Assembly (NCBI GenBank): GCA_964634935.1
Contig: CAZWJT010000006.1
Coordinates: 10,189 to 74,188, forward strand
Reading direction: 5' to 3'
Length of the DNA: 64,000 bases
DNA from: an uncultured Planctomycetia bacterium
GTDB lineage: Bacteria; Omnitrophota; Gorgyraeia; Duberdicusellales; Duberdicusellaceae
Shown: positions 1 through 64,000 of the stretch, piece after piece
How positions within the stretch are numbered: the stretch's first letter is position 1
How the letters are laid out: every line of letters starts with the position of its first letter
The notes under the pieces: model-generated
What the model saw: the letters and a program-made list of their open reading frames with translations, nothing else
Told to the model about the DNA's origin: nothing
Database searches by the model: none
Position numbers and translations under genes: made by a program

Positions 1-3000
1 AAACTACGCACACAGAAAACAGGAAAACTTTGGGTTGTGATTGAAGGATACCATGGGGCTGGGAAGAGTTATGCGGCGGAGCAAGTGAAGGATCGGTTAA
101 TACATCTTGGTTTACATCCTGTAGTTTTGAATTTTGATCTGTCCTGGACAGACCGACAAGAACGCAAGCGCTGGCGAGAAGAGGCGCGTTCTCGAGGGTT
201 GGGGCATGATTATTATGATGCGTTGAGACAGAGTCCTAGGCCAATGCATTGGCGGAAAGCGCATTCCGACCAGATGATAAAACAGATTACAGAGGGTACT
301 GGCTTGGTGACAATAGACGAGTGCTACCAGTTTGATGAAACGGGAAGCGCCACGGGAACAGAAAGCTTATTTCTGAGAGCTGATTCTGTTATTCTTGCTG
401 ATGGTGTTTACGCTTCAATGGTTGCCAAGAAAGATTGGGATCTGCGGATTTTCATCAGCATCGATCATGCGCTCTCCAAGAGCATAGCGATGGTTCGTGA
501 TCAAAAACGGGTTTATCGGAATCCGGAAGATACACGCGCTTTATACGAAGAAGTCTATGAGCCAAGCTATCAGAAGTACGCACGGCTCTATAGTCCCGAA
601 GAGAAAGCTGATATCGTGATGCGCGTGGAAAGAATCGATACACAAGCGATGGCCCCCTTGTGCCCCAGGCTCATTAGGACAAAGGAAGTTATGGTCATTC
701 TTGAATGTACGAATCCGGATTGTTCCTTCCAACAGCCGGCAGTTAGAACAAATGTCTGCCGCGTGTGCGGAAATGACCCAGGGAATATCATTCTTGGTGA
801 TGTCGATTTTCTGTCTTTGATCGAAGAAGGTGAGTCGAGTATGTGGCGTTATAAAAAATTAATGCCAGTAGATCCCAATGCTATCGTGAGCGATGGAGAA
901 GGGAATACCCCTGTTATTTATATGCCGAACGTAAGCGCCATGCTTGGTGTGCATGTGTGGTTTAAGCTTGAAATTGTGAACCCCACCGGGACATTTAAAG
1001 ATCGGGAAGCCTCTTACGTAGTTTCTTTAAGCCGGCAATACGGTCAAGAAAATCTGGTGATGCAATCCACGGGGAATACGGCAATTTCTATTACCCATTA
1101 TGCTGGATTAGCCGGAATTCCTTCCTGGGCTTTTATACCCGAAACAAGTACCTACAAACTTTTCATGCCCGAAAAAAGAAAACCGAATAAAATAATCGCT
1201 GTTCAGGGTCATCCTATCGATGTGAAGAATTTTGCTGAAGATTTCGCGATGCGGTATGGATTTCCTAAAATATCTCCCTTCTATGAACGTTGTGAAGCAA
1301 ACGCAACGCAGGCTTATGAGATTGCCGAAGCGCTTTTACGAAGAAAGCTCCCTGAGCAAGATATTCTCCGGGGCGGCTCCTTCGATTACTATATCCAGAC
1401 GATAGCGGCTGGTATGGGTCCGATTGGTTATTATCTTGCGATGAAACGGCTACGGCAATGGACACAAGGAAAAGTGGCTGTTCCTAAAATTGTGGCGGTA
1501 GAGGTGAGCGAATTTGCGCCTATTCAAGCTGCGTGGGACCGTGATCTTTCAGAAGTTGGCGAAGAAGTAGCAACCCCATACTTTCCTGATCATCCTTTGT
1601 TTGAGCCGACATTATGGACTACGAATATTAGAAAATATTATCCACATTTAAGAAGAATGCTTAAGGACACACACGGAACACTTACCTTAGTTACTCCAGA
1701 AGAGGTAGCTGTTGCGATGTCTGATTTTGGCGTGAAAGAAGAGCTGGAGAGCGTAGGATATAAACTGAGCGCCACTGAAAATGCTTCATTTGTCGGGTTT
1801 ACCGGGATGGTCCATTTAATTCAATCAGGAAATATTCCTCAAGGCAGTAAAATCATCCTCATGCTTACCGGGAAAGGGTTGCACCCACAACACATTCTTG
1901 AAAAGCCGGATTGCATCATCAATCCCCGGGAGCATAAGCCGCAAGATGCAGTTCGCATGAGTTCCTTTGTTGATTCTTCGGCAGTACTGTTCGAAAGCAA
2001 TGCCTTTTTATTTTTAGGAAGCATCGTGCTCGGGTTATTTTTATTGGGTATTTTGAAAACGCTCTCATCCCCGTTGACTTTGCGGGCACTCTATTTCCAT
2101 TCCGTTGCTCCACGCAGATTTTTAGATAACGGCGGTTATGCGGTCGGCAGAAAATTGTTTGGCAGAATGCGCGGCGCGATTAAAAGTATTTTTGGTAAAT
2201 CGTATGCTGCCCAGGCTCCGCCTCAGATTATCATCATCCCCGCATTTCGCTATGCAAAAAGCAAAAAATACTTGCTGCAAATAGCCACCCAAACCGCGAG
2301 AATAACACAAACAAAAATTCCATATTGTCCTTGTGTCACCATAGCACAACCGGTTCCTTTTTCTTCGTTAACCGATCAGATAGGCGGACGCTACGCACGG
2401 GGCAGAAAGCAGTATATTTTACCGAGTGATCCACCGTTTGTTTTTCAAGATTCGCCCGTAGTGGTTCTCACGGATATTGATCTTACCGGGTATGATCGTT
2501 ACGGAGATACAAAGTCATATGTGTTTGGGAGAACATATTTTCGCAAGCGGGTAGTATTTTTATCGACATACCGTCTGGCTAGCTCTGAGCCTGCTGTCGG
2601 TATCGCGCGAAATGTCAAGAATGCGCTTCATGAGTTTGGGCATCTCGTTGGGCTTGATCACTGCTTTTGTCAGGGGTGTGTCATGCGTTTTTCAGTTTTT
2701 CCGGAACAGCTTGACGGAACCAAAGCGGAATTCTGTGATTACTGTTCTCAGAGATTAGATGAACTATTTTCCCAGGGTAAAGCCTGGTCATTCGCATTTG
2801 TTCCTTTTATTTCGTTGTCGATTCTCGGAGTGATTTTTCTTCTCTGTTGTATCCGGGCAGTATTGAAACGACGGAACGTTGATTTCTGTAGCCGCCAGGA
2901 AAAGAACGACGGATATTTATGTTCCAGTTTGCAGCAATTGCGGAAATTAGGACAGAGACCAATAAGCCGACGGACTTTCTTGGGCGTCACAACGGCAGCG

Positions 3001-6000
3001 CTTATCCTCGGAGCCTTCATGAGTTATCGATACGCTCTAGATACTTCTGATGAGCAGGATATCGCGGATGACGACTTGAGATCGTTTCTCCAGAATTTCA
3101 TCGAAGATCTCGCCTCTTCTCAGGATCCTGCGCTTGCAAGCGCGCAGGCGTTTTACGAGCTGGCCGCTTATCAGATGATTGCCCCGGCTACAATTCCGAA
3201 TGCTGAATGTTGTCTTTCCGGTGTTCTTTGGTATGTTCGGCATCATGCGGATGGAACTTCTACGCTTGAATTACGCTTAGTTCTTGATCTGGAGGCATTC
3301 CATTCTCTGATAGTCAAAGCAAAGAAAAATGCCGTCTATAAAGCATTTGCGCGCTCGATAGTGTTGAAAGAAGGCGCGACCATTTTGGATATTCATGAAC
3401 ATCCAGATTTTTATTTTGAGACAAATGCGATACAGAGAAATTTTCCCGCACAGGCTGAAAAAGAAAATACGTTCTATGCCAGAAGCATCGCGGCGCGTTT
3501 TGTCGAGATTGAAGCTATAGGCTACAGGGAGCAGGAAGCGTACCTTACGCGCTCCGGTGTGAATGCAGAAATGCTTGCAGCACTGTGGCGTAGAGAGTCT
3601 GATGAGCGAATTCGTGTCTGTTTGAGCCTGAGCGCAAATATCATCAGGCTTCTCCGGCATAAAGAATTTTTTGATTTACGAATCGGTTTATTTTTAAGCC
3701 ATATTTCCGCGCTCTGGCCAAGTGTTTTTGAAGCATGCAAGATCCGTACCACGGCAGTACAAGAGAACCGGGGTATCGGAACGTTTCGCGGAGAAAAAGA
3801 GCAGTTTTCCTTTTTAGAAGATGCCAAGTATATAGACAGGAAGATCGAGGTTCAGCAATCTTCTTCTCATGATTTAGCGCATACTTCAGGCTGGCCAGTT
3901 GATGTCGGTATCTTTAGCGTTATTTTTGTTGGTATTCTTGTGCTTGCGATCAAGGAATTCATTTTCGGTTTATATTTTTCCACTCCTGTATCGCAGGGTT
4001 CAGCACAAAATACTCCCGCATACCCGTTCGGTATCTCTTCTTTCGAAACCGAAAAAAAATTAGCCGCGGCGCTTTCTGATTTAAATAGGATATATTCCGA
4101 AAAAGGAACAGAAGCTATTTTTGAAAAAGTTTGTGCGAATTTAGAGTTACAGCGTCACATTTCACGTATAATTCGCGCTCAAGACCGGCTTGAAGATACA
4201 AAAGGTTTTTCAGTGGCGCAGGAATGGGCCGAAGAATTTAAACATCATCTTCTTAGGCGGGCAGTCCAAGAATTACAGGGAAGAGACATCTGTATTTTGC
4301 AAATGGAATACGAATTTTCGATGCGTTTTCTCCAGGAATTTAAAGAATATCTTGTGAAGAGCAAAGGATGTAATGAATCTGACGCCATTTATAATACCGG
4401 TGAACTTGCGAAAATACTCATGGCTGGCGGGCTAGGCAGTTTTAAACCTGATTTGGTGCGAGGCTGGTATTCGGTACTGCGTGATCATTGGGGGGATATC
4501 GAAGCGCGCCGGCGTCTCCATGTTTTTGGCGTATTATATTGCGAAGCAATCAAAGGGCAAGGGAGAATTTTGACAAAAGGAGCAGTACAGTCAGAAAACA
4601 TCATTGATTTGGCCAGGCAGTCCCTATTCAAGATAAAAACCTATCACGGCTTGGAGCTTAATCTGCATGGGGTAGGGAGAGTCGATGTTGAGATATATAT
4701 GAATCCCTATTCGGAATTAAATGAATATTGGCTCTATTGTCCTCAGGTATTCCATGAGGCGTATTGTGGGAATTCCGACGACGACTTCCGGGCAATTCAA
4801 ACACTACTCTACCGGAAGGTAGTGCTCCAGTTTTTGAAAGAGAGGGCCAATGAAGGAGCAATGGGGCGGCGTTTGTTATTTTCGACAAGTGAAGTTAACA
4901 CAACCTTGGCTATTCCAACGGTGGTGAATGATTCATTCCGGACAGATCAAGCTTTTGGCGATATCGTTGTTCACCACTATAACCATACGATCGTTCCGGC
5001 TGGGATGCCGCGGTATCATTGGTATATGTTCGATTTATTGAAGATTGCCGATGAATTCAGGGATGCTATTCGCGATGGGTTCGTCGATTTAGTGAGAATT
5101 ACTGGCCAGGTGAGTCATTTTATTACCGGTTGTTCAAGCGAGCATACACGTATTTTACGTGAGAAGATATTTTGTGAGTTTTCCGGAAAAGTAGTTGAGG
5201 ACGACATTTTTGGCAATAGCGAAGGCTCAGATATCGAACGCTGGCAAGGAATAGGCATCCAAGGAGTGTGCCAGCGATATATGGCCCGAGAGAAAGTTTA
5301 TACCCATACTCAATTATTTAACCACCTTGAAATGAATGCTCGGTTAAAAGCAAGGTTTATCGGAGATTTATTGAGAGTCAAGCGCCAACAGAAACAGCGG
5401 TTTATCGCTGAGCTATTTTTCGGTACTTTCGGCGCTATGAATATTACCGAGGCAGAACTGGTAGCCTTGAAAGTTGATTTTATCAATATGCCATTCTTTA
5501 CCTTTGTCCGGCGTTTTGTCGATTATAAGTGCGGCGATCTTATTGTTGATATCCTTTCCGATCCTGGTTACCGTGAACGGATTATCAAGGCTGGAGCGGT
5601 TATTTTCATCGGAGGAAGAAAATTTGGTTCATTTGCAGATTTGCAGCAATACAGAATTCAGGAGTTGATTAAACAAGATCCGCGGCTGCGGTACCATATT
5701 GTATTTGTTTCGGACCATAACGTGTTTACTTCTTGGATAATTCAACAAGGCGTTGACTTCGGCGGTATGCTTTCTTGGAAAGGAATGGAGGCTGGCCCAA
5801 CCAGCATTAGTAATTCTGGTCAGAATGGGTCTCCAACCATAGCTTCTCCAGACGGGGTGATTCCTGAGCGGCTCAAGCAAATATCCCGCTCTTCCCAGGG
5901 AGTTATTACGGGCGGAACAGGGTACTCTGTGGAATATGGCCAAGAACTTTCTTCTTCCGGAGAGATTAAACCCGATAGAGAATCTTTGGTGCGGCGTATT

Positions 6001-9000
6001 GAGGAAGCTTGTCAGGATTATTTTCATCCGGAACGGTATGGTATCGCTGCATTGAATGTGTTGAGAATGACTACTACACAGGGGGATATTCGGAATCAAG
6101 CCCGAGGATTAATTAAAATTTGGGGAGAACAAATTTTTCTTCTGCGCGCAACCAAAAAAACACAGCAAAAGAAAGGTACTCAAGCATCCGCATCGTATGA
6201 TGGGATATTTTCTGTTCCAATTCTTATCGGAATCGTCGTTGCTGTTATCTTTTTCTCGAAGGTTTTTGTTTACGTTGTTCAATTGCTGGAAACCGTCTCA
6301 AAAAAGAAGATTTTCCAAGAAGAATCAGAACGGTCGCTGTGGAGTTTTCAAAAAAGGTTCCGGTCTACCTTCCGTGGCTGGCGGGGGCCGGAGTCCGCCA
6401 CAGCGGCCGTATTTTTTGAAACTGTTTTTGAGATTGGTATGCTTCTGGGTATTTTATTCTTGATGTTGTATTTTAAGACTGCTCTAACGAGTGATGATGT
6501 AGACAACCCAGGAGAATTTTGTAATCAGGCTTCTGGCGAAAAAGCCCCCGACCCTCAGGTTCCGCTTGACGCAATCTTTTCCGACACACCGGAATTTTCC
6601 CGTTGTTTTGATCGGATTTGGACTGAGCTTGCGAAGGCTTCAGGATCTCTTGAGGGGCTGCGAGCAATGGATATGGAAGAATTTGCCAAAAGGCTTGGCG
6701 GAAAGAAACTTATAACACTGACGAAAATATTTAAACGTGCCAAAAAGAGTGTTCCGTTTGGTATTTTTATCTCTCCCCGTGTATTTGAGCATATCATTAC
6801 GATCAGAAGATTCATCTGTGACCATCCAACAGATCCAATGGTGCGACATTTTGATTCAACACTGCGTAGTCTGGCGCAGGTTCAAGAGATTGATGCTCCC
6901 GGCTGGTATTATAATCCAATCAAGGGATGCACGAAGGCCTATGTTTTTCATGAATTTCTTGAGTCGAGTTTTTATGAAAGCGGAGTTATTGATGTTCATT
7001 TCGAATATTTTCTCAATGATCTGCATCCCGGAGTTCTCCTCGGGGAATTGGCCTTTTCGGCGTTGCTCGGCAAAGAGTGTTTTGAGCAATCCCGGGCAAT
7101 TATAGAAAGACGTCTCACAACTCTGGTTGAATTTGGCGAGGAACTTGAGCGTGCGCAAGGAATGAAACCGTGGGATAACATTAGATTTGATACAGGTAAA
7201 CCTTTAAGAATATTTTTAGGCTATTCTGCGGATGAGTATCATCGTTATGCCATACAATTGTGGAGAAAAGCGGCAGGGTTTTCTGTGCAACGAGAAAATT
7301 CGCAATGTATCGCATTTTTACCTGGGTGGATAACCATCTTTGGAATTTCTTTTGGGCTTCTTGTTCTTTTCGTCGCAGCAATTTTCTACCTGTGGCGGCG
7401 GATTAAACAAGAAGCAGTCTCTTTCCAGAAGATTGGCGGAACCGTGTATGTTCAGGGTGAGCATTTTCACGCTTTTACCGTGATTCGCGGCATTGATTTT
7501 GTTCCACACGTTTTTAGGCCGGCTTGTGGAGGAGTTGTTTTTCAGCGAGTAGACCGAGGTTTTGATCGCGCTACCCTGGAAGAAGCTGCTTCGTATGCGC
7601 GGATGCTTGCTGAGCACACGGATACTGTTGCAGCGCTTTGGAATACATATCTGCAAGGTGCGGCCACGGTTATCATATCCGATGGCTTACAGACAAAAGA
7701 GAAAATTTTATATCTTTGGGCTCGAGTCCTTGCGGAGCAGGGAATTCTAGGTTGGCAGTACATTGTTACTTCGGAACTCGGCACTGCCGAAGAAGATATG
7801 GCGTTCATCGCTGATGTTGCATACGCTACGGGGTTGAAGCGATATTTAGAAAGTGGACGTTTGAGCGAGGCAGATAAGCAAATAATCCGTTTCCATCTGC
7901 GCAAAAAGAGCTGGCATAATGTTCCAATTGAATACTTATGGGATGCGAATCTTGTTCTTCCAGCCGCCGGTTGTCCGGAAAAGTTTGGCGGACATCCGCC
8001 ATTTCGCTGGGATTTGGGGGGATTGAGCGTAGTTTCCGGAATACAGACAATACTTTGGTCAACAAAACAAAATTTTCCTGCGAACATTCTCATCGATGGG
8101 TTTGGATTTACCGGCCGCTCTATTGCCCGCTCCATTATTAAGCGTATCCCCGATGAAGTACGGATTAGCGGTATTGCACAACACAACGAAGCAGTTTTTT
8201 CTTCAGAAGGCATCGATAGTTTTAATCTGCTTCACTATATTAGCGCGCGGGAAAAAGGATTAGCTTCATCCGAGCTCGGTATTCTTGCCCGCCGGGAAAA
8301 ATCTCTGATGCCACGGCAGAAATTACTGAGACAAAATACGGATATTCTTATTTTGGCAAACCGGGATCACGAACTGACCTTTGAAGAGGTTAAATCGTTC
8401 AATGCGAAGATCGTGATCGTTGCGATACCGGGTGTTTTAAGTGTTGCCCATATGGATTGGCTGCATCGCCAAGGAGTTTTTTGTGTTTCGTCAATCTGGT
8501 TAAACGGCGGAATTCTTTTTGGAGCGCGGGAAGAACTCTTGCATAAATTGGTTGGTCGCGAACGTCTGCATGTTCGTGATATGCGCCGGCATGTCGAAAG
8601 CGGCGTCCGGGAAGTAGCGGTAACCGTAATGTTTGAAGAGCTTGACCGATGCAAATCCCATAGCGTATCGAGTGTTGTTGAAATGGGGCGTACAATGGCA
8701 AGTCAAATACGTTCCCATGAATTTGCTTTCTGGGATGCCATTCGGAATTCCGCTTCATCTCAGGGAGTTTCTTTGGAAGCGCTTGCTCAATCTCAGGATA
8801 CAGAGAAGGTAGTATCCGTAATTTCAGATCGGGCTTCTCCAGAATTAGCCCCTGTAACCCAATTGGCACTAGCAAACTATCGGGACGGAAGAAACGCCGT
8901 ATTCGGACTTTTAAGTGCGGTTCTGGAGATCGCCCGGCAACGGGTTATTTATAATGAGCATTCGGCAGAACGTGCCCTCCAGGCAATCAATTCAGATGAT

Positions 9001-12000
9001 GATATGTTGCAGCGTATTGCTGCTTTTCATCTGGGCAGGTTGCGTGTTCCTCAAGCAACCAGTGCTTTGCTTGAGAAGCTGGAGAATTCTCCGGTTTCCC
9101 ATGTCCGGGCTAACTGCGCGCATGCTTTAGGGTTTATTTGCCATGTTACCAGCGATAGCGCGACTCGGAAGAAAATTATCCGTGGTTTGGTTGCTGCTTT
9201 GGGCGATTCAAAGCATAAAGTTCTTGAGTGGGCGCAATGGGCGCTTTCAATTAATGGCGTAGGCGAGAAAGAATTAATGGATATTGCTGAAGAGATAAAA
9301 CGCGATGAAATTGATCCACAGGTAGCCGTTGAAAATACCATTGGTCATCGCGAGGTTACCGATAAAAGCCTTGGTGATTTATTTCTGGAAATGGCCGGTA
9401 TCAGTACTTTTATCCAAGATGATGTGCGAGCGCGCGAGTACCACCGCCATGCGAGATATTATTACCTGCGTGCTGGGGAAAAATCCGGGCCGCTTACCGT
9501 AAGAAGCCAGCTTTCTTTAGCCAGAAATTTTGAGGCTTCGGGGAATATCTACATGGCGTTGCGTTCCTATATGCAACTTCTTAATCCGAGGTCATTTCTT
9601 CGTATCTATGCGCCCCCGACAGCCCGGAAAATTGCTGGTGATTTGGAATGGCTCCACGAATACCGGCGTATCGCCATTGAATCGATGCTTGATATCTACT
9701 ACCCGCACAGCCAAGACGTAAACGAGCTGGTCGCGGCAAAACTTGATGACATTATTCCTGTCGCGCGGCGCTCGTTCTCCCCGAAAGCATCTTGGCAGAA
9801 ATCTTCGATACCGCTTTTTGTGCTCTATGATGTGGAATTGAGACGTTACCAAATGCCTTATCTCGGTTTATTGCTGCTTTTTAGTTCAGATATATTTGCT
9901 CAAAGGCGATACCGGAATGTTCAATCTTTTATCACCCAAGCATTAAGCCATAAGGCTCTCACTGATGAAGACGGGATTCTTTTGCCTGAAAATAGGATTA
10001 TTGCAATCTTAAACTGTCGGCTCAGCGCATTTATCAATATGAACAAAAGAGAGCGCCGTATCGCCATGGAATTACTGAGGGAAACGGATATTATTCATTC
10101 ACCGCACCATGTCCTTTCTCTGATATACGCCGGGATGCGCTTTTGCTATAGAACCGTGCATCATAAACAATTCTTTGCTTGCGGCGCCGGCGTATATACT
10201 GCTTGTGGCAACGTAGACGATAATGTTACCAGCGCAGTACGATCTGAAATCACGCGTGCCCGGAGCCAGGGACGGGATAAAGCCTATTCTGAATTAACCG
10301 ATCAAGACTTACCGGCTCATATCAAGGAACATCTGCGTTCTCTTTTTTCTTCTTTTGGAAATGTGCGCGTTCTTATCCCGGTATCCCACGGATACCAGCG
10401 TGCTCCGCCGTATCTCTGGTACGGTTCAGGAGAGAGATTTGTTGCCGCGTGTGTTTTCGAGAACAAAATCTACCTTCCGCTTCGTTTAATCATCTTGCTC
10501 AGTGTTACCAAGAACGAACCCCTACTTGCTAAAATTATTGCCCACGAGAATAACCATTTGTATCGTAAGAGCGAGGATGTTTCTGAGGCAGTGCAGTTGG
10601 CAGCAGCATTACAACAGGCATGGCATGAGGATTCGGAGAATTGGCTGCGCCACAGTATCGGCGTCGAATTAGCAGTCAGAGACCATGGTGCTTCTGATGA
10701 AACACGGATTGTCCGGAAAGGTTCTTTTGATGATGTGACCAGAGACATCCCGCGGTATGCTGCTTTGGGTATCCGGGCCATACTGCTTTTAGATGTTCTG
10801 GAGCACGCTTACGAGGGTGTTTTTGATGTGCTTGATCCACTCCGCGTTAATCCTGAATTGGGCAATGAACAAAAGCTTGTCAATCTTTTACATGTTGCAC
10901 ATCAACATGGTTTACGAGTGATCCTCCCAGGTGTATTTAATCATGTGTCACGCAGAAGTCCCCTGTGTTCTTTGCATCCCGATTGGTTTATCCGCGATGC
11001 AGGAGGACAGATTGTTTCAGCAACAGATAAGCGGGGTGCCTGGGAATGGAAGTCGCTTGCCCAATTTAATCTTGCTCATTCAGAAGTCCGGTCATTTATC
11101 CTGCAGGTTGCAGAATATTGGATAACGATGGGATTTGACGGTTTTTGGCTTGATGCGGCGGGCAGTCTTCTTTCCCGGAATATTGAGCAAAACTGGGGGA
11201 TACGCGTTTTCGGCGAAGAAATTCTTACTCAACTTATCCACCGTACGCGTTTACTCAATTCTTCAGTGCGTTTTATTGCCGAGTCATTTGATCCACGCGA
11301 TCGGTGTCGGCTAGAAGAGCTTGGTGCCGATTTAACTATGGATTGGGAAGTAATAGAAGCGCTGATTGCTGCAATGCGTTATGATTCGCCTGCGCGGATT
11401 CTGGAAGTTTTACTGCGCTCCGGAGAGATACAGCTTGAACGCAGAGCGTTTCATCGGATTAACCATGATAAATCGGCCTATCAGGATAAGCAGCTCGGTC
11501 TCACGAGAGAGGAAATTATTTTTGCCATGGAATTTCTCGCTTCACTACCTGGAGCTTTCTGGTTTTTTGAAGGAGAAATAGAAGGGAAAAGGACATATTA
11601 CTATCATTTTGACGCAGTGAAGCCGGTTGATGGAGCGCTTGTCGACAGCAAATTAGCAGATTTTTATGAACGTTTTATTCCGATAATCACGTGTGATATT
11701 TTACGGAAAGGTTCATTTCATCCTTTGGGATTGAAGGTTGTTTCACCTCAGGATGTTCCGGTTTGCGCGTTCGCCCGTGAATATCAAGGGAAATTTATTG
11801 TTGTGGCTCTCAATCCAACACAGAGAACATCTGATGATGGGAAGGCTTGGCTTTATCCGGATATCTCTTTTCTTCTCCCGCAGCATGGTGTCCGTTACCG
11901 CGTGGATAATTTGCTCACTGGTGAAGAATTCCCCCAACTTTCCTCCGAAACCATGCGTGTTCAAGGTTTACCCATTGGGTTAGCCAAAGACGAGATACAA

Positions 12001-15000
12001 TACCTGCGGTTAACCCCGCTAGAATGCACGAACGCCAATGGTTTCTTTGCTGATTTTTCTTCAGCCGCGTTCTTTTTTGCAATCTTTCTTATTGTTTCTT
12101 TGGTGATTGCCGCGCATCGGATCTTGAAAAACAGAAACAGGGTTTTTCTCAGAAAAAACATTCTCAGGCAAGTTTCAGCAGATGAACTTTTTTCTCGGGT
12201 ATCGGCGATTATCCCGGATGAAATTGTTTCTGATGAGAAAAAATCGGACGAAGTGAAACAATGGGTGCGGCTATGGCATGAACGTTTTGCACACATTGAT
12301 TGGCTTACCGAGAAAGCTCGTGATTGGTCGTTGGAGCAATATTTACAGCACATTGTGGTGCCGACGGTTACAGCCGTACACCGCATGGATAGGCTTGGCA
12401 AGGTACGTCAGGAAACGCTTCGGGCAATTGCAATAACCACGATACCAAAATTTATTACCGATGAAAGCGGAGAAGACATCTGCGTGGGGACGGCTGAAAC
12501 TCTTAATTACTGCCAGGCCGGTGAAGTGATAAAGCAATTTATCGGCTGTCTGGAACGGCTCAGGAAATACCCTGATAGAACTTTTGAGCAGTCTTTCTTA
12601 CCTCTATATACTATAGCCGTTATTATATTCTTTGGCATAGCTTTGATGCTTCTTGCTGCACCTATCCTGTATGGTTCGCGCCAGAAGCTTGCTACCGATG
12701 ATATTGCAATTCAACTGGATGGGATAAAAGAATTAGTAGCAGCATATAAAGATCCTACAACTTTGGAAAAAGACCGGCGTTTAGCCTTTGGCTGCGTTAT
12801 AGGCCTTCTGCGTCTTGCGCATACAGGCGAGGTATCCACCAGTTGCATGACCTATTTACCAGAAGACCAGGTGATGATACTGCAAAAAGCATCTCTGCAG
12901 GCTTTTGAAGATATGCTTTCTGCTTCTGTAGATGGTGACGCTTATGCGCGTTATCGACATGATTTTAGTCAATTAGGGGTATTAGCCCGCGGCATAGAAA
13001 AAGCAAGGAAATTTGATCAAACAGATCTATTGGAATTCGGTTCTGCTTTTTATCAAGCAGTGCGTAATGCAATCCAGCGCAGCCTTGCTCTCCATGCATT
13101 TGTTTCTGTTCATGAACATGAAGTCGACAATCTTTCTTTTCCCGGATTTATAAACCGCGTATGCGCGCTGTTACCAGGGCCTGATACCTACGCTGCGCAA
13201 TTCCGCAAGGTATTAGTATGTCTACAACAGATGGCACAAGGTAACGAGCAAGGATTGGCTTCGCTTATCAGATGGCCGGCTTATCCGCATTTCATTGATG
13301 GACGGAGAAATCATCCAATCTACATTATCATTGGGCATCTTGACGAAAATGATTTTTATCCTCGATTTGAGAAAGAGATCATCCGCTATTTTCTTTCCAG
13401 TGGCAATTATATCCATTGGGTAATCCGCATGCTCTTAAGCGCCTATGTCGCAAGCGACGGCTTGAAGCGCGAACGTTGTTGGTATCTTTTACAAACAATG
13501 GCCGATGAGACATACCTGGCTTTGTATTCAGATTATGAGGGATTACGCGATTATATCATAACTTTATCCAAAGATTGGCAGAGGGATCACGCATTTCGGC
13601 AGGCAGCGGTAGATTTAGTAAACGATATTCCAGATCCCAGAGAAATCGAAAGCAATCTTTTGGGAAGTTCTGAGTCCTGGGTTCTGGGCACTTTGATCTT
13701 TGATGGAAGCATCCTGATGTTACTTCCTATTGTCGGATGGTTACTGTTGATGTCTTTGTCCCAGTCCGGTTTAAGCGCACATGCGCACAAAAAAGTGCAT
13801 AGAAAGATCACGGAGAAAATTAAAGAGGGCGATTCCGGCAAAAATCCAAAGAAAAAGAAAGATTCCGAAAAGAAACAGAAAAAGCTTAAGAAGCAGCAGA
13901 GAATCGAGCTGCTCCGCTTGATGCAGGTTTTGGTTCAGATGCGCGCTCTTGCCGCGCAATACAAGAGATCAGCGCAAGTCGAAAAAAGCGCAATTGCTTC
14001 GCAGTGGCTCATCCGCGCCGAAGGCGCAACCAGTATGCTTGAACATATGCGCGAATTCGGAGTATTACGGCAGGATGCTGCGGATAAATTCCTGGAGGTT
14101 TTTGATGCTACCCGCGCTATCATCAGGCCGCAAGAGACACTACCAAAGGAAAAGAACGCTGATGGGCTACTCAGTAGCCCGGAGCGGCTGCGTAACATCG
14201 AATGCCTTGTTTACGATTGCCGTGCCCGGCAGGTGATCGCAAAGAACACTTTTAGCAGGAATGACCGCGATATCGCGGAGATTTTGGCCGCATCGTCGCA
14301 ATCATGGCAATGGTTGAAGAAAGCCCGCAAGGTCCAACGCGGATTGGAAATGAAGATAGTTGGCCGTGATACTAGCGATATATCGGCGCAGGATAAGGTA
14401 CGTATAGCCCTTCTTTCTACGGCAATCGATGCGGCAATGTTGGGCGACTTGAGTAAGAATGATTGGCGGGTAAAGCGCGATATCCAGCAGAAACACGATG
14501 AGCTTTGTTATGAAGTCTATTTGCTTAAGGTGCAGGCGGATATGATTCCTGCAGTCGAGATGCACAAAAGCTCAGAATTAAGCCAGAACGACGCAGAGCT
14601 TCTTGATGAAATGGATATGGAGGATGAGAGCATTATAAAGAGATCTACGGCGGAATCCGGGCAAGAAGAGCATCGCAAGATTCCTTATGAAGATTCGGCA
14701 AGCGCAGTCACTGCTGCTGGAGAGTTGATCGCTTTCATGCAGAAGGGTGATTATTGCAGCGCAGCGTGTCCGCCTTTTAAAGGGAGTTTTTTCCAGAAAC
14801 GGGTGGGTGCTGGCCATATGTTGCACCTTGGGACATGGAGGCAGAATAATAAGCAGCACCATATTAATATAATGCTTGGTTACCTAGAAGCCGGGGCGAT
14901 AGTAACTATCAGGAAATTTTTCTCGGTTGATCTGGAACAGTGGCTGATCGTCGTCGAAACCGAAGACGCTGAGCATCAGCGGGTTTATTATTATCCTGCT

Positions 15001-54000: not shown

Positions 54001-57000
54001 GAAGATCCCAACCTCACCTCGGAAGATGTAGGCATGCTTCCGCAACGATTTAATACTATCCGCGCGGGAATGTTTTTAGTATTTTCGCTTGATCCTGGAG
54101 GAGAAGAAGTTGACGAGAGACAACCTCGTTTAGCCGATGTTATCGGTGAACGAGACGACAGTATTGAGCTATCATCGGTAGAGAGAGTTTTACGCGGAGT
54201 AGTTGCAAAAACAGAAAGACGCCTGCGGGAACAATGGTCAAGGGTCAATTCACAGAAAGAGGTTGAACGAAATATCTTGATATTTGAAATAAGACTTGCG
54301 TCTTCATTAGGGCTGGGGATAGCAGAGTATTCAACTTTGGAAGAGACTGGAGAAAGAGTAGAACTTACTCGTGAGAGAGTAAGGCAGATAGAGAAGCAGG
54401 CCCGTCCTATTTTTGAGGAAGAGCTATTATCCTCCGGTGTGACCCTAGAGGAAATTAAAGGGTTGCGTAACAGTGTCCAAAACCGTTCCAGAGATAACTC
54501 TGTTTTTTCAAGTCCCGCGATCGTTACGCCGGTAGCGATGGATGGAATAAGCAACTTCAGCTTGCTTGCTTTTTTGTGCATGAGTTTATTTGTGTTTTCG
54601 GTATTATGGGCAACTCAAAATCCGCGCAGCCCGCCGCAGGAGAGAGATGCTCATGTTTCTGCTGCAACCCACAAGAAAGAAAAACTCCTGCCTGTCATTC
54701 AAAAGAAATACGGCCTCGGGAATATTTTACATCTCGAAGATACCTTTAATCAGGCACGCATCATCACGGTGGTCATCTTTGGATGTATCGGTGCTCTGAT
54801 CGGCGTTTTGATACACGTTTCTCCTGGTTCAGGCTATTTAGGGCTCATGATCTCGGCTGTCATTGGCGGAGTGGTTTTGATTGTTGTTCATAATTGGATA
54901 TTTCCTAAGTCACCAGTCCGAGAAACCGAAGGGATACTGAGCGATCTGGAAAGGTCTTCTTCGCCGGAAATCTTGGACGGTATTTTCCGAGCGCTTCGCA
55001 TTCAATCACAATCCAAGGGGTTTATACAGCCAGTGGATTTATTGCACGGATGGACGGCGGGCGTGGTTCAGGAAGTCGGAGAATTTGCTTCTCCATCAGG
55101 GCATCCATTAGCCGCATTGCCGTTACCTTTTTCAGTTGTTCATCCTTTGGATGTTTTTGCATATGATAATTCGCGAGAGTTCATCACCTATGCATTTAAG
55201 ACAGTTTATGGAGAACTTGGGGTATCCGAGGAAACAATGGATGGGATTATCAGGATTCTTACCGATTCATACGGTCAGGATTTATCTACGGTAGCGCGTA
55301 GTCTTAGGGAATACATCTTATCAAGGGATATTGCGGATATTTTTGAGCGATACAGGCGGCAAAATTCTATTGATAAGAAATTTGAATTGGTGCGACCATA
55401 TCTACAAGGACCAGTAGTTGCGGATATCGGAACAGGAACCGGGGAGTTAGCGTTGCGTATCCTTGATCGACTTCCACAGGTAAGAAAGGTTATCGCAACC
55501 GATTCCGTATCTTATCTTGGGGTAACACATCCGCAGATAGACTTTAGACAGCAGACCCATGAGAATGCGCTCCCTCTAGAATCGGGATTAGTCAATACCG
55601 CATTGCTCAGTTATGTTTTTCATCATATGAGCCGAGACACACAGCAGGATATTGCCGATGAACTTTATCGTATTCTTGCTCCCGGAGGCAGAGTTGTCAT
55701 CCTGGAGGATACCTATTCTGCGGTTTTACCGGCACAACAGTCGAGTGAGCTCATGAAGCGTTTTGTGGCACTCGAATATTTAGCGCAAATGCGGGTTTTG
55801 GGTTTGAGCGACTGGTTGAGTTTTCAGGTATTCCGCGGATTTGATATCAGCTTAACATTCACCTATCGCACCCTTGAATCATGGGCAAGGTTCTTTGAAG
55901 CGGCAGGTTTTCGTATTCTGCAAACAGATTTTATCGGCCGGCCCCAGGGTAATTTTCACATAGTTCCCCGCGGATTAATTGTAATCGAAAAAGTTTCCGA
56001 AGATGAGAAGGAATTTGATCCTAGGCCATTATTCCCAATCCGAGCAATCATGCGGCACGATCCTCATCTTTGCGAAGGTGCGCTCAATATTGGCACAGTT
56101 CAGAGAGATCCATCGTTAAGCGGTAAAGATATTCTCGGCTTTAATTTTGAGAACATCATAGATAAATTCCGCACCTTTATTTTAAGGCATAACGAAGAAG
56201 AACTAGCGAGTCTCACGCTGTGCCAAACACACGATGCGATATATTTTAGGATCCGCTTAGCTGAGCGGTTGAGGAACAAAGGTATCGGCAGTGCGTGGTT
56301 TCATGATCTCCTTGTGCCTTATTTTTCAAGCCTTGCTGATTCAGGGATACAAGATATACGTACGTATTGGTACTGCGCAGAAGGCGGTTATGGCGAATTT
56401 GTCATGGAGAAACTACATTTTGCTCATAAAAGAGCGATAACCCTGGATACCCATGAAATAGTATATTTTTGTGCATCAATGGTGAATAGATGTAGCCCTA
56501 TTCAGCCAGACAAAGGTGTTGGTCAGTCTTTGGACCAGTCGTCTTGCTCTCAGCTTGGCGTTGCTTTATCTGGAACAGGAATCATAGGATCACTGATTTT
56601 ATTCTGTGTGTCTGCGTGCGTCGTGTGTATGTTAGCGCATGCATCGCAGGGCAATAGGGTACGTGTTTTAGATTCTTCAGACAGAACAAGCCCGGAGAAT
56701 TTGCTTGTAGGTGAAAGTGTGTTTACCCCGGTTGATGTAATCGCGCATGATATTTTTCTGCAAGCACGAAATGGTAACGCCTCAGGGTTTAAATTACGCT
56801 GGGATTTGCGCTTTATGCATTATCAGGAATTCATTAAGCACGCCGCGGCGATAAACATCGCAGTCCGAAAACTCGTCCAGAGCTCACCGCGTTATAGCCG
56901 AGAAGTAATACGCCAAGCGCTTCTTACGAGAATCGAGATGGTCGATCAAAGCATGAAACCTGTTTCCGAAGGAGGATATCTGGCGTCATTATCGGAGAAA

Positions 57001-60000
57001 GGAAGGGGAATTGTAGACTGTGCGAGGAAAATAGCTGTATCCCGTAATTCCAGGAGAACTATTCTTTTGTATCAATTAGAGCGGCTGATCGATGTGCCAT
57101 TTGATTGGTTTACGTCTTTATCCTATCCCTCCCCCCAGCAGCATCTGTTCATTGGTTTTATGCCTACAGTCGGTTGTTCTTCTCAATGCGATCATTGTTA
57201 CTTGAATACGCCATTCTGCGTCTATAGCATGCCGTGGATCTGGGTTAAGCAATTGCTGCAGCTGTGGCCGCACATCCGTCCAATGTGGGAAACCGCCGAC
57301 TATATCCGAGATTATTATGATTGGGTTTTTGACAAAACAGCAGTGGATATTATCAAGGAATGCGCCGAAAATATTTTTGAAGATAATTTTGCTTCGATTA
57401 GTACCTCAGGGATTCGTCCAGGGTCTTCCGTTGCTTCTGCCTTGAACGGATTATGTCAGTTTTTGTATGACAGAGAGTATCATTTGCGGATGCAATGGAG
57501 TTTTGCTCCGAGCGTTGAATTGCGGATATTGGGAAAAGAAAATTTTGTGAAGATGCTTGAATTCAATGCGCTCGTCATGCGCCAGATTCGTCAATCCGGG
57601 GGTGAGGTTCTCCTCCCTTGGTATGATTTTTGCCGCGATAGCGACCAGGACGTAGATGTTGCGTCTTTGCTCATGTCATTCGCTGGTTCCGCTTACGCAC
57701 CAGAGCCAACGCCCTGGATTGCGGAGAGGGGAAGATTGCGCGCTTTGCAAGCACAGGGAGTAAGATTTGTTTCTCATGCGACGAAGTTCTATCAGGGGAA
57801 CATGCCCTCTGATGATTGTTTGTGTTTATACCGCGTTATGCCCAACGCGACCTTAGGCAAAAGATCGTTAGACCGCGATCAGGACGTCAATTATGTCCAT
57901 GAACGGTCGCTGCTGAAAGATGAAACAGGTGATGGTAAGACAAAACATACTTTGTGTACTGTATGTAATCTGAATTGTCCTCAGCGAAAAGAATGTTTGG
58001 TTACCTTGGGGTTATCGAAAACCGGGGGCAAGGTAACTCGTCTATCGAGTTTTGCCGTCGAAACGCCATTCACAACAACGGGAAGTATCGTCATCGCAGT
58101 GTTTATATTTTGGTTGTTGCTTAGTCCGCTCCATTTTTCTCGGGATAAGCGTGACGCCAGAAAAAAGCAGAAGGCGCAAAGGTATAGAGATTTTTTAGAT
58201 AAAAAAGGCAAGCCAGGCATGCGAATTTCTTCTCATGTTTCTGCGCGAATTCGGGAAATTAAACCCGGTAAGATCGTTGATCCGCTGGAGCAGTATATAG
58301 TCACTAAGCGGGAGCAGTTTAATTCCCTGTATTATATTTTCACGGACCTAATTAATCAAGATGGTCCGCAGAGTGAATATATCTTGCGCAGTGTTCCCGA
58401 TATCGCAGGTTTTCTGTATCTGGCCAATCTTTTGGCCGAAGAAATTCCGCAAACAAAATGGGCTGATTTTATTCGGCCGATCCATACCGGCGATGGTTTT
58501 AGTTTCGATTGGATTCTTTCCATTGCTCAGTTATCCACCGAAGAAGAACGCTTTATGGCTCTTTTAAGGCGGATCATGCAGATTGATCAAACTCCGCTTA
58601 CAATGCTTTTTGAAGGTACGAGGAATCGGTTACGCGGATATGTACGAGGCGGTTTATCGGTAGAACAATTGTATGCAATGGTGTGTTCCATTAAACGGGA
58701 CTATCGGTTATGGAATCAGCGCGAAAAAGCGGATGCCAGGGATAAAGCCATAAAGCGAGAGAAATATGTATCCTCATTTATGAACAGCCCGCTTGATCTC
58801 AAACGATTTGCCATAATGAGGGCGTTGAATTTCCGTATACCGCAACATATTCTTACACCAAAGAATATTACTGCGCTTTGTTTAACCGATGCCTGTCCGC
58901 TTCAATGTCGGCACTGCTTGCAGGGGTTTACTGGGAGGGGTAAAGCTTTAACCGAGGAAGAAGTCTTGGGGGCGGTTGATTATTCCAATGAGCAAAATGT
59001 ACATGGTTTGCTTTTAAGCGGCGGAGACGCGTGGCTTAAAAAAGACTTGGTACGGGTTGCAATTTTAGAAACAAACGCAAAGATTGTCAATATTGCTACA
59101 ACCGGTGTCTGGGCAAAGACGCTTGAATCAGCGCGGAGTGTTTTATCAGAGATACAGACAATGTACGATGAGCGCGTAGCTTCTGGTAAGAGGCCGGTTA
59201 AAATTAGCGTTGATTTAAGTATCGACGCGTTTCACCGCGGACGGCACATGAACAACGATGGGAATATTGCTGATCGTGTCCCGGCAGCGTATGTTGCCAA
59301 TCTTGTTCAGGTCGCGCTCCAGGAGTTTCCCTTGCTGCGCGTAGGTTTAAGCGGGCAGATGATGCTGCCGATGGATTGGCAAGATGAAATATTAGTTGAG
59401 TTTGCCAACCGGGGTTTACAACCGATACTAAGAATTACCGATTCTCTTCAGGGTACTACTGATGCCGGCAGAGAAGTTGAGTTTATGACGCAAGGAAAGA
59501 TTATTTTTAAGAACAGCAAGTTTGAAATTGGTTTAGTAAATATGGCAACTGTGCAAATAGGACGAGGTGTTTTATTGTACTGGGATGAGATTGTCAGCCA
59601 GTGGAATACGGTTTTTATCGATAAGGATGCGCTTAAAATTCCCAGTCAGGTTAGTCTGACAATATGCGGTGATGGTCAAGTATACCATGGGGATGAAAGC
59701 GTAAAAATTATGACGCTGGGATCATTCCGTAACAGATGTGAAATACCATCAACTATTGCGCTGGAAGACAGAAGAAAAGAAGTGGCGCAGCGCTTAAAAG
59801 AGATATTGCACTCTACCTGTAATGATCCGTTGGTTATTCTTCGCTATGTCCACCCTGTTCTGATTCGCCGGATTGCCGAGGAGATAGCAGGACCCCAAAG
59901 AATAGGTAATGCTGGACCTAATGTCTGGAATGTGTATTTACAATATCCTGAAACCAGACTTTATTTAACACAATATGCAGCGCTCATTCTTGCAGGATTT

Positions 60001-63000
60001 CATTCTCAGAGCAAAGATGTTTTTAAAAAGATGAATTCTCCCGGGCCGATCTATACACCGGCGGATTTAATGAATGCTGGTATATCGACTGATGTCCGGA
60101 TATTGCAAGCCGAATACAAACGCAATAGAGAGAATCGGCTCAGAGATAATCCCGTACCGTTTGACGATATTGACGAGATTAAGCCGTATCAGCGCTATGT
60201 ATCAATAGCTCAAAGAGAAGAGTACCGGCGCCACGGTTTTTGTGTCGATGAAGCAACGGGCCGTCCTTATAAACCCGGTACTTTAGATGAGCCAGCATGG
60301 TTTTCATCTTCTTCTATCACCCCGGTGATGACCTTTGATGGGTTTACTGCATCTGTTGGTTTTGTGTTCATGCTGTCGGTTGCCGCCCTTCTGTGTTCGG
60401 TTTTATGGGCAGCCCAGAATCCGCGTGATCCGCCACACAAGAACATAGAATTTACCTTTGGTCATGAAAGTCATCCCAATATCCCCAAGTTTCATCGAGA
60501 AGGTCTTGACAAGAGTTTTTTCCCATCGGAAGAAATCGTCGCAGTTTTAGAATCACAAGATAAAAAAGGTTCTTTGGAAGCCACCGTTACTCTGTGTGAA
60601 GAAAATAATGTATGTATCTGTCTTGTCCTTATGCCAGTTGGTGAAATTCTGGCAAGGATAGAAATGAGTAGGCAGGATTATATTGTAGTGACGAGACGAA
60701 ATCCGACACTGCCACGCGATATTACGGATATCGTTATGAAGCAGGATAGTACTGTTCGAGAGAGCGATCCTTTTTGGGTGGGGGATGTGATTGTTACTCG
60801 GAAGTATTACGCCCATTTGCATTGGATGGCCGCTATTACACATTTTGAAATTCATCCCTGGATACGCCAAAGAGGGATTGGGGATGCGTGGTATAGAAAA
60901 TTTGTTGAACCTTACATTCGGCAGTGTGGTTTCGATATTATTCTGGTGAGAGGAACCTGTCTGGATGATTTGTACATTAGTAATTTCTGGTATGATCAAG
61001 GTTTTTCTGAAAGCACCCCATTAACTCAGCTGATCGGTGGCGAGACACTCATGGAGTATATTTCGGTAAAAAAATTGGATTTTGTATCGCAAGAACCGAA
61101 TCGGGAAACAACCAGTGGAACAGAGAGTCAGGAATCATCACGGTCCAGTGTTCCTTCGCTTATGATCGGCGGCACGAGTAGCACGCTTCTTCCATTCTTG
61201 GGTTTTTGTGTTCTTGCCGTTTCGGTCTTGTGGGCAACAAGAAATCCTCGACGTTTGCCCTTTGGGTATCTTACCATTGAAAAAGCGCAAATTGATTCTG
61301 TTGATGAAATCGCAGATATATTTGAAAGAGAGCTGATGCCTCTTTATGCGGATGATGTAGACGGCAGTCCCTTGTGGACAAGGCAGAATTATGCACAAAG
61401 TGTGCATGATATGATCGCAGGGACAAACGAAGGACGGGAAATTGAAGCTGTTGTGTTGGTAGCTCGGGTTGACGGCTTTATCATTGGCTATATATCAGCC
61501 TGTTTTTATCCGGAAAATAATTGCGGAGAAATAAATGAGATGGCAGTTGATAGACGTTACCAAAAGCGCAAAATAGGCACCAGACTTTTGGGTGAGGCGG
61601 TTGCTGTTCTTAAATCCATTCCGCACATAAAAAAGGTTACGCTTACCGCCGACATATCTCAGGGAGAAAGATCGAGTCGGATTGCCCGTAAACTTGGTTT
61701 CCGGGATGAAGATGATACTATGACTTTCCCGATTGCCGATGACACAAGACGGAATCTTCTTTCTCTCTGCCCCGATTTTATTTTTCCGGTTGCGGTGATA
61801 GTATTTTTTGCGTTTCTCAGCATGAGAAGGAAAGAAGCTTTTACGGAAAATTATAACCCGGACACAAAAACAAAAAAGATTGAGGTTGCTGATGGCGATG
61901 ACCCTCATCGTGCCAAGGAAAATAATTCACTTCCTCAGGATAAGTTCGCGCGGGAAGAGGCGATCCAAAGGGAGATTACCCGGAGTACAGTTGTAGGTGC
62001 GCTTGGACGGCAATACATTATTGATGCTTCTTTACAGGTGCAATATGTTGTTCCCCAAAAACAATCCGAAGTAAGATATATTTTAGGTCAGATATCAGCT
62101 CTCAAGATTCGGGCTGGGCCATTTGCTAACCTTTGGGGAGTCATCCGCGCTGACACTCTCTATCTCGATGATTCACTAATAGATCCCTTAAACCGAGATG
62201 AACTTTTGCTTACCTTATTACACGAGGCGTCTGCTTTAGCCTATCCTCGAAATTCAGATAAAGAAAACGAATCTTTTGCCAAAACTTGCAGCAAACCGCT
62301 CAGAGAACAAATAGAATTTAATTATATCGGTGATAAAAGCAGCGGGCAATGCAGTATTTATCAGGTGGGTTGGATTATGAATCATCTCTATGCAATGCTG
62401 TATGCCCACAAGAAATTGCTTGAACGTACGAGCAGTGAATTTGGTCCTATTGGGCGTGTTTACGAAGGAGCGTTTTTAGTCGAATGCGGTATGTTTCAAG
62501 TTACCCCTGCAATTGTTCTCAGAAGGTTGATTTCTTTTATTCCGGCTATTTCCGGAGCAAAAATATTTGATTTCGGTTGTGGTGATGGTTGGACGGCATT
62601 TCGTTTAGCTGCGTATGGCTTTTTCGTTGATGGAGTTGAAGTTAACTCTCAGTGGGTTACTATGGCAGAGCAGGCTAAGGATAAGCTTTTTTCGTGGGCT
62701 AACCTTGTGCGAGATACAACCCTAAGCAAAAAATTAGAAATGGTTGCCAGCGCAGTTTCAATCCGTGAAGCAGACATACTTCAACAAAAATTTGATTTCT
62801 CTCCGTATGATATTGTATATCTTTATTATCCTGAGCCACGCGCCGAATGTGAAACATTTCCCGTAGATGTGGCGCGGGTTTTAACCGATTTCCACTTAGG
62901 AATGAATTTAAACGCGCGGTTTGTTGTCACTCGCCAACGTTCAATCAATGCTCCGGTTTTTCCCGGCTTTGTACGCTTACCTCAAGAAGAAACAATTATT

Positions 63001-64000: not shown

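Follow-up and report, generated by a model that had tools for sequence, protein, structure and literature searches.

One open reading frame fills the window

The DNA considered here, referred to as the window, is a stretch of 64,000 nucleotides from an uncultured bacterium that GTDB places in the Omnitrophota (class Gorgyraeia; assembly GCA_964634935.1, contig CAZWJT010000006.1, positions 10,189 to 74,188 of the forward strand). Six-frame translation reveals a single giant gene fragment that occupies the entire window:

1..63999, + strand: single open reading frame (ORF) of 21,333 codons, open at both window edges

Retranslation of frame +1 gave 0 stops in 21,333 codons, confirming a sequence-only reading of the same DNA that had called this frame stop-free. 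Stop counts in the other five frames are 1,028, 1,388, 1,054, 801 and 800, and none of these frames stays open for more than a stretch of 129-242 codons. Using the per-codon stop probability calculated from the base composition of the window (p = 0.0577), the log10 probability of a stop-free run of 21,333 codons is approximately -550. Because the ORF is open at both edges, the gene must be longer than 64 kb, and the earlier proposal that the window is internal to a giant gene holds, with a length of more than 21,333 codons.

The coding signal is uniform. Enrichment of G/GC at the first codon position identifies frame 1 in 16 of 16 4-kb tiles, and a codon-usage log-likelihood ranks the same frame top in all 424 sliding 450-nt segments, from which we conclude that there are no fossil intergenic stretches and no frame switches. 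The same likelihood shows no intergenic-like dips in coding potential along the window. Neither Rfam families nor tRNAs were found in the 64 kb, and Tandem Repeats Finder (TRF) detected only two tandem arrays, both tiny. We considered whether the ORF might be an artefact, either a chimeric or erroneous assembly or non-coding DNA that is stop-free by luck, and find this hardly credible. Chance would have to produce an event of probability ~1e-550. In addition, frame-1 codon periodicity persists throughout the window, several full-length enzyme domains share the one frame, and the GC content is homogeneous (0.40-0.49). Assembly errors and chimeras disrupt frames and neither make nor preserve a 64-kb ORF, and comparable 21-kb all-open loci were found independently on two Joint Genome Institute (JGI) contigs.

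The frame encodes a mosaic of divergent domains

To describe the product, we searched translated tiles against Pfam, NCBIfam and PDB sequences and inspected the matches for motifs. Apart from a helicase region that is treated separately below, the named domains are these:

40..621, + strand: P-loop kinase (PRK/uridine-kinase-like), Walker A GYHGAGKS; Pfam PF00485, weak (E 4.9e-4, 20.4 bits against a 22-bit cut-off)
715..1911, + strand: threonine-synthase-like pyridoxal-phosphate (PLP) enzyme of the PALP fold; Pfam PALP 6.5e-31 with the full profile covered, NCBIfam threonine synthase 122 bits against a cut-off of 303, PDB 6cgq E 5e-19
2458..2769, + strand: archaemetzincin (peptidase M54) with zinc motifs HEFGHLVGLDHC...C...CDYC and a hydrophobic helix directly after; Pfam PF07998 8.8e-15, NCBIfam archmetzin 75 bits against 145, PDB 3zvs
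5653..5868, + strand: carbohydrate-phosphorylase-like segment, weak; PF00343 E 2.4e-6, 26.6 bits against a 27-bit cut-off, no support in the PDB-sequence search
8002..8511, + strand: ELFV-dehydrogenase-like (Rossmann) segment, weak; PF00208 E 1.7e-6, 28.4 bits
8968..9246, + strand: HEAT repeats; Pfam HEAT_2 1.4e-9
10636..11595, + strand: GH13 alpha-amylase-family catalytic domain; Pfam PF00128 1e-11, NCBIfam cyclomaltodextrinase 74.6 bits against 540, PDB 2z1k and 1wza
21058..22299, + strand: complete glutamate dehydrogenase (GDH), N and C domains; ELFV_dehydrog_N 5.8e-46, ELFV_dehydrog 4.2e-59
30211..30768, + strand: trypsin-like (HtrA/MarP-like) serine protease with His, Asp and GFSGGP present and one helix flanking each side; Pfam Trypsin_2 7.9e-13, weak NCBIfam matches
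31300..31812, + strand: CheR-type S-adenosylmethionine (SAM) methyltransferase; Pfam PF01739 1.9e-6
37483..37773, + strand: cytidine/dCMP deaminase-fold zinc domain (HSE...PCFHC); Pfam PF00383 9.7e-15
40906..41229, + strand: FeeM-like N-acyl amino acid synthase (GNAT-fold) segment; Pfam PF21926 8.6e-10
45874..46998, + strand: second PLP enzyme (threonine/serine dehydratase-like PALP); Pfam PALP 2.3e-22, NCBIfam IlvA-like 50 bits against 421
49045..49449, + strand: signal peptidase II (LspA, peptidase A8) with its own transmembrane (TM) helices and a NIAD motif; PF01252 9.8e-7 over profile positions 1-141/142, NCBIfam lspA 24 bits against 74
53506..54456, + strand: complete sigma-70 family factor; Pfam Sigma70_r1_2, r2 and r4
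55369..55923, + strand: class I SAM methyltransferase; Pfam Methyltransf_23/25/11
58858..59235, + strand: radical SAM core (CPLQCRHC); PF04055 2.1e-8, weak NCBIfam match to rSAM maturase-type families
61435..61713, + strand: GNAT acetyltransferase; Pfam PF00583 1.1e-13, weak NCBIfam RimI-like match

Frame 1 thus carries about 20 different domain families, none of them in more than two copies (PALP, radical SAM and ELFV). Catalytic or binding motifs are intact in most of the named domains. The domains span their profiles end to end, yet they score far under the NCBIfam equivalog cut-offs, and we conclude that they are complete but strongly divergent copies.

Two of them are unusual enough to describe separately. 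The glutamate dehydrogenase starts ~45 amino acids (aa) past a helix and contains both GGGKGG, with the catalytic lysine, and the GYGNVG of the dinucleotide fold. It scores 390 bits against a cut-off of 750 for archaeal GdhA in NCBIfam (profile positions 10-413/419) and matches PDB 1gtm with an E of 3e-96 over residues 11-412/419, a full-length match to hexameric enzymes. The sigma factor has regions 1.2, 2.1-2.4 (with an insertion), 3 and the helix-turn-helix of region 4.2, and a helix follows ~50 aa after it. NCBIfam RpoD/SigA/RpoS-like models give 120 bits against a cut-off of ~380, regions 2.4 and 4.2 are RpoD-like, and the PDB matches are to SigA, RpoD and RpoS, for example E. coli RpoD residues 342-594.

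The encoded chain combines distinct enzymes and regulators in a mosaic and is neither a repeat protein nor a non-ribosomal peptide synthetase or polyketide synthase (NRPS/PKS). Size is the only property that it shares with the other classes of giant, namely repeat-built adhesins or surface fibres (Chlorobium chlorochromatii-type, Bap/RTX-type) and NRPS/PKS megasynthases. Internal repeats are nearly nil at both protein and DNA level (self-BLAST, TRF): self-BLAST of the window product returns only one threefold ~450-aa module and one ~170-aa pair. No tile has an adhesin, Ig-like, cadherin, RTX, condensation, adenylation, ketosynthase or carrier-protein Pfam match, and the chance that the gene belongs to one of these classes is negligible. 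Named domains cover 19% of residues, a figure that rises to 34% when anything with a detectable relative or paralogue is included; for the other ~66%, no relative was detected.

The gene probably belongs to a published type of Omnitrophota giant

Few bacterial genes are as poorly understood as giant multi-enzyme ORFs, be it with regard to their action as one chain or as polyproteins, to the way they enter the membrane or to the role of the orphan sequence that makes up about two-thirds of them. West-Roberts et al. 2023 (bioRxiv 10.1101/2023.11.21.568195) described Omnitrophota giant genes of up to 85,804 aa with numerous TM helices and with methyltransferase, hydrolase and peptidase domains of divergent sequence, and suggested that their products are proteolytically processed. 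Related giants are reported to be transcribed as one mRNA and to have been found in proteomic data (10.1101/2023.11.21.568195). Nielsen & Lui 2026 (bioRxiv 10.64898/2026.06.07.730766) extended the range to 147,155 aa and defined a class 1 of "multi-enzyme metabolic clusters", whose chains are covered by numerous different Pfams, among them methyltransferase, GNAT, radical SAM, signal peptidase II and HEAT.

The window agrees with the class 1 giants of Omnitrophota (Gorgyraeia) in each class feature open to comparison here (10.64898/2026.06.07.730766). Those are uninterrupted ORFs of >10 thousand aa (kAA), and the frame here runs for at least 21,333 codons. Both combine many distinct Pfams with none dominant (~20 families in the window), and both include methyltransferase PF08241, GNAT PF00583, radical SAM PF04055, signal peptidase II and HEAT. 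TM helices make up ~2% of residues in class 1, at ~1 per 370 aa; the window has 1 per 340-430 aa by a Kyte-Doolittle (KD) scan rather than DeepTMHMM. In both, most of the sequence is unique or orphan, and homologous modules occur in ORFs from Omnitrophota metagenome-assembled genomes (MAGs). The class 1 content of starch synthase, GT1, phosphoglucomutase and histidine-kinase ATPase was not seen in the window. Conversely, the complete sigma-70 factor and full-length GDH go beyond the class 1 accounts. The main text of 10.64898/2026.06.07.730766 makes no mention of sigma, glutamate dehydrogenase, helicase, "cleav" or "positive-inside" and says nothing of a uniform charge polarity among isolated helices, and that of 10.1101/2023.11.21.568195 does not mention a sigma factor inside a giant protein.

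A second point of comparison is the archaeovorin type, represented by the 39,678-aa protein of Velamenicoccus archaeovorus LiM (10.1101/2023.11.21.568195). Archaeovorins and the window share a giant single ORF, numerous TM helices and large unannotated stretches. They also share divergent methyltransferase, glycoside-hydrolase and peptidase domains, represented in the window by methyltransferases, GH13 and three peptidase families, and embedded proteases for which post-translational cleavage is proposed.

We conclude that the window gene is a new example of the published Omnitrophota giant type and not a new kind of gene. The sequence-only reading had found nothing nameable with this domain composition, a statement that does not survive comparison with the multi-enzyme and archaeovorin giants. 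Its statement that such rare giants are known mainly from a few lineages, Omnitrophota among them, was borne out; the best specific homologues are fragments of very long ORFs of Omnitrophota MAGs. All things considered, it is highly probable that the window comes from the interior of a genuine giant coding gene for a membrane-threaded multi-enzyme mega-protein of the Omnitrophota type. What is new here is the embedding of a complete sigma-70 factor and GDH, a set of helices with the same polarity, and an exported module common to giants. These details make the choice between polyprotein and mega-scaffold experimentally approachable.

A helicase super-module points towards Omnitrophota

Only two parts of the window have specific relatives: a helicase super-module and the Cys-motif module described in the next section. 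The first is the following:

23980..29613, + strand: helicase super-module (aa 7,994-9,871, ~1,900 aa); AAA_11 9e-36, AAA_12 4e-25

This super-module comprises a conserved, unnamed region of ~1,350 aa and an Upf1/DNA2-like superfamily 1 (SF1) core (28018-29613; Walker A GPPGTGKT). The upstream region has no Pfam match, and its multiple sequence alignment (MSA) contains 4-5 sequences only. The AAA_11/AAA_12 core, which is the only helicase in the window, differs from the SecA_DEAD domain of archaeovorins.

Using tblastn, we aligned the super-module to an ORF from a Ca. Omnitrophota MAG (L008) at 33.5% identity over 1,980 aa. That ORF exceeds 4,611 aa, has a signal peptide at its start and runs off the contig end. 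A contig-filling ORF from another Omnitrophota MAG (L010) matches at 41.6% over 1,018 aa, and stand-alone genes at two further loci (L005, L006) match at ~30% over ~1,000 aa. Identity of the super-module to contig-filling ORFs of Ca. Omnitrophota MAGs ranges over 33-50%. Five of the six named top matches of the helicase core (31-50% identity) are from Omnitrophota. Judged from these module homologues, the gene is probably of Omnitrophota lineage.

The closest stand-alone counterparts are large secreted helicase-domain proteins of Omnitrophota (P0004, P0010; L005, L006), which have the module in common with the window at 30-34% identity over ~1,000-1,900 aa. They are encoded by separate genes of 2,440-2,695 aa without strong internal TM helices, on the same strand as neighbouring 3-7 kAA genes. 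Unlike them, the module in the window is fused in frame behind GDH and lies between helices.

The arrangement is seen at L005, an Omnitrophica MAG (GCA_015231405.1, JADGBR010000019.1, 1-28088). At this locus a gene of 2,695 aa encodes the helicase module on its own, within a row of same-strand 3-4-kAA genes spaced ~300 bp apart, and two of its neighbours have signal-peptide-like N-termini. This row looks like the "split" counterpart of the fused giant architecture. Sec-type signal-peptide N-termini are found on the large proteins of L005/L006, P0004 and P0002 despite an ATP-dependent SF1 helicase core. A secreted helicase is an odd localization that echoes the "unlikely localisations" of West-Roberts et al. 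(10.1101/2023.11.21.568195).

A Cys-motif module is common to giants and stand-alone secreted proteins

The threefold repeat found by self-BLAST corresponds to a module of ~450 aa, the copies of which are 30-44% identical:

38611..39954, + strand: Cys-motif module, copy A, ending at a stop-transfer-like helix (self-BLAST, alignments)
44326..45681, + strand: Cys-motif module, copy B (self-BLAST, alignments)
56698..58062, + strand: Cys-motif module, copy C (self-BLAST, alignments)

Its signatures are WDLRFxHYQEFIKH (WDLRFMHYQEFIKH), GCSxQCDHCY, RDYYDWVF, SGIRPGS and a C-terminal LCxxCxxxC. The module has no Pfam match at E <= 0.01, and an AlphaFold2 (AF2) model built from a 4-sequence MSA was uninformative, with a predicted local distance difference test (pLDDT) score of 49. 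We considered a radical-SAM identity because CSxQCDHC is present, but rejected it: there is no Pfam radical-SAM core, and the stand-alone homologues are exported.

Protein-database searches returned one relative, a stand-alone protein of 563 aa (P0121), whose gene lies at L009 (6736-8427). A DNA-level scan of metagenomes placed the module at three further places, within long ORFs at L011 (~9850-11310) and L013 (~9860-11275) and as a stand-alone gene at L012 (3396-5081). The L011 and L013 ORFs are open across all 21 kb fetched (7,092 and 7,088 codons) from contigs of 128 kb and 86 kb, and these fragments are multi-enzyme mosaics too, with different enzyme sets. The stand-alone proteins (562-563 aa) have Sec-type signal peptides, one with a lipobox-like IIAC, and no C-terminal helix. 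Because the stand-alone copies carry signal peptides, we predict that the Cys-motif module is exported. It constitutes a previously unnamed domain family that is common to otherwise unrelated giant genes. The occurrence of this exported module in unrelated giants and as a stand-alone secreted protein implies that giants are assembled by shuffling autonomous units.

At L009, the Cys-module gene starts 95 bp past the stop of an ORF of >2,212 aa (6641-6736), with AGGAG before its ATG. This gap is a natural example of a boundary that is fused away in the window gene.

The scan at DNA level recovered giant relatives that the protein search had missed. The longest listed match in the protein collection is 4,883 aa, and apparently nothing in it exceeds ~5,000 aa; "no homologue" results for giant sequence are therefore biased. 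Giant genes seem to be invisible to a large protein database, and DNA-level search is needed to find them.

Most isolated helices share a charge polarity

By a hydropathy scan, the product has 50 strong helices, a number that grows to 62 when the threshold is relaxed. This equals 1 per 340-430 aa, and the median distance between helices is ~300 aa. Most are isolated, single helices between soluble modules. Two stretches stand out:

12055..29742, + strand: eight well-separated helices of the same polarity (aa 4019, 4205, 4565, 5088, 5638, 5950, 6953 and 9895), by flank charge
31999..37263, + strand: densely polytopic membrane block with ~12 strong helices (aa ~10,670-12,420), by hydropathy and flank charge

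Among the isolated helices (n = 37), 29 have more K/R on the C-terminal flank and 5 on the N-terminal flank (p = 3.9e-5). On average, 3.16 K/R occupy the 15 residues after a helix and 1.59 the 15 before it, against a background of 1.80. The bias holds across thresholds and flank widths, and control ORFs from unrelated loci that were passed through the same pipeline gave 35:26 (Fisher p = 0.006 versus the window). Locally, a polar linker rich in S/T/Q/N/G/P leads to an acidic residue, a helix of ~23 aa and then a K/R burst. The run of eight helices listed above is the clearest stretch of this kind, with few K/R before each helix and many after. The polytopic block has mixed charge polarity, as normal threading predicts. 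Simple threading does not explain the 29:5 ratio among isolated helices, because a chain that alternates across the membrane should give about half of each polarity. The same-polarity signature is statistically solid and is not predicted by an alternating topology. The relatives of the helicase module have too few helices for a polarity test.

The flanks of the Cys-motif module give some indication of sidedness. A helix closes each copy, and the strong K/R cluster that comes after it gives the look of a stop-transfer sequence. Four pairs of domains are one helix apart: the deaminase and Cys-A, Cys-B and the second PALP enzyme, the class I SAM methyltransferase and Cys-C, and Cys-C and the radical SAM core. 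Since each Cys-module is one helix away from a cytoplasmic-type enzyme, the chain appears to cross the membrane, at least locally.

Cleavage into tethered units is tentatively preferred

Based on these features, we propose the following sequence of events. The gene would have been built by in-frame head-to-tail fusion and shuffling of autonomous units. It would be translated as one chain, with the helices inserting co-translationally. The exported modules (the three Cys-modules and probably the trypsin-like and GH13 domains) would be tethered on one side of the inner membrane, and cytoplasmic enzymes that depend on cofactors (GDH, helicase, SAM methyltransferases, radical SAM, GNAT and sigma-70) on the opposite face. 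The chain would then be cut into membrane-tethered units by the embedded archaemetzincin, trypsin-like protease or signal peptidase II, or by host proteases.

We rank cleavage into tethered units above an uncut scaffold, although we hold it tentatively, at a little under even chances. Cleavage is favored because three protease families are embedded in the chain and because a hexameric GDH and a sigma factor would be hard to use inside an uncut chain of 21,000 aa. It is also favored because nearly all isolated helices carry one N-out/C-in signature, as might be expected if every helix opened a fresh anchored unit, and because cleavage has already been proposed in the literature for this class. 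Consistent with autonomous units, separate genes exist for the helicase module (2,440-2,695 aa) and the Cys-module (562-563 aa, with signal peptides). The embedded sigma-70 factor and hexamer-type GDH are easily assayed and hard to square with an uncut product.

A functional analogy is offered by membrane-threaded viral polyproteins, such as those of the Flaviviridae, in which the helices of one long ORF place enzymatic modules alternately across a membrane and embedded and host proteases free the units. The window likewise has embedded serine and metallo-proteases. The two are not homologous, however, and the window is cellular, at least ~6 times longer and has no identified cleavage sites, its processing being a prediction.

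Several results weigh against parts of this picture. Inspection of the sequence upstream of the helices showed no shared motif. There is no enrichment of lipobox sites on which the embedded LspA might act (6 versus 5.1 expected) or of AxA/small-x-small sites at helix ends (19 versus 20.7 expected). The helices are simple hydropathy calls of Kyte-Doolittle type and do not come from a trained topology predictor. In L011 the polarity bias shows as a trend short of significance, and L013 lacks it. Helix-count parity between domains of a-priori side fits alternation in 6-10 of 13 transitions, depending on threshold, which is not significant. With regard to lineage, one of the six named top helicase matches is labelled Elusimicrobia, and the lineage is judged from this one module. 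The window contains no marker genes, and its contig is neither among the GTDB species representatives nor, by exact 45-mer search, in the JGI metagenomes. Finally, the SecA_DEAD/preprotein-binding domain present in most archaeovorins has no match in any window tile, and the C39/S8 peptidase, glycosyltransferase and NUDIX domains of archaeovorins were not found in this 21,333-aa fragment. The signal peptides or C39/S8 peptidase regions of archaeovorins are N-terminal and the T2SS (type II secretion system)/pilin/pilZ genes are neighbours; the gene ends lie outside the window.

The absence of a cleavage motif and of lipobox or AxA enrichment speaks for an uncleaved scaffold, in which one giant polypeptide with alternating helices would hold enzymes near each other on both faces of the membrane. 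Short-range sidedness fits such alternation, as the four Cys-module neighbours are one helix off and the helicase/CheR and radical SAM/GNAT pairs are two helices apart, and accounts of published giants based on DeepTMHMM assume intact threaded chains. However, alternation predicts K/R on the N-terminal side of about half of the helices, and the isolated ones are 29:5 the other way. A GDH of hexameric type and a complete sigma factor would both need to function from within the chain, and parity is inconsistent globally, with three helices, for example, between sigma-70 and the SAM methyltransferase that comes next. We regard the intact scaffold as a serious contender that we would nevertheless bet against.

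We also asked whether the ORF might be a cryptic operon, with many internal starts producing proteins from overlapping or nested genes rather than one protein. The modules are separate genes in relatives, and the L009 gene 95 bp past a long ORF shows such a junction. Separate genes need stops, however, and there are none in the 21,333 codons. Shine-Dalgarno (SD)-like motifs precede 7.3% of in-frame ATGs against a background of 10.3% and are thus not enriched; the strong SD candidates number 6, none of them at a domain start. Coding potential has no intergenic-like dips, and promoter-like matches fall under the shuffle expectation in the first 20 kb. Terminator-like matches in the same 20 kb number 33 against 21 expected, all of them weak, short stems. 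An operon of this kind is very unlikely.

Returning to cleavage, a stronger form of it can be formulated, which we consider speculative and rather improbable. The pattern of linker, acidic residue, helix and K/R would mark unit boundaries in a membrane polyprotein. Cuts upstream of the helices by the embedded archaemetzincin or trypsin-like protease, or by host proteases, would free dozens of enzymes, each anchored by an N-out/C-in helix like Pf3 coat protein, and the freed sigma-70 would couple processing to transcription. If this is correct, one ORF would take the place of a large regulon with stoichiometric expression in an ultra-small cell that depends on a host.

Dark sequence and minor features

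The sequence between named domains was examined in two ways. In a word-indexed search, the dark stretch at aa 4001-7000 had no match in 5.8 billion clusters. Full HMMER against 1.84 billion representatives returned 10 weak matches to aa 4225-5424, all within ~270 aa. The pair detected by self-BLAST is also orphan sequence:

13189..13701, + strand: duplicated orphan segment of ~170 aa, copy 1
32479..32988, + strand: duplicated orphan segment of ~170 aa, copy 2 (34-42% identity by self-BLAST, E 2e-23)

The copies are ~19 kb apart, and the second lies inside the polytopic membrane block. One external relative was found (P0126), and it is weak. The polytopic block itself has no match in the PDB-sequence search. 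Within it, aa ~11166-11208 (nt ~33496-33624) give a weak match of isoprenylcysteine carboxyl methyltransferase (ICMT) type that is under the cut-off (E 1e-3) and could represent a membrane-embedded methyltransferase.

The two small tandem arrays both fall in 51546-51710 (aa ~17196-17245), where GC is locally low (0.40). They encode a strongly charged, K/R/E-rich stretch (RQARAKEDKRRRKEKRRERNEAVRAKADK) immediately after a helix, which is an extreme form of the post-helix basic burst, or possibly a coiled-coil.

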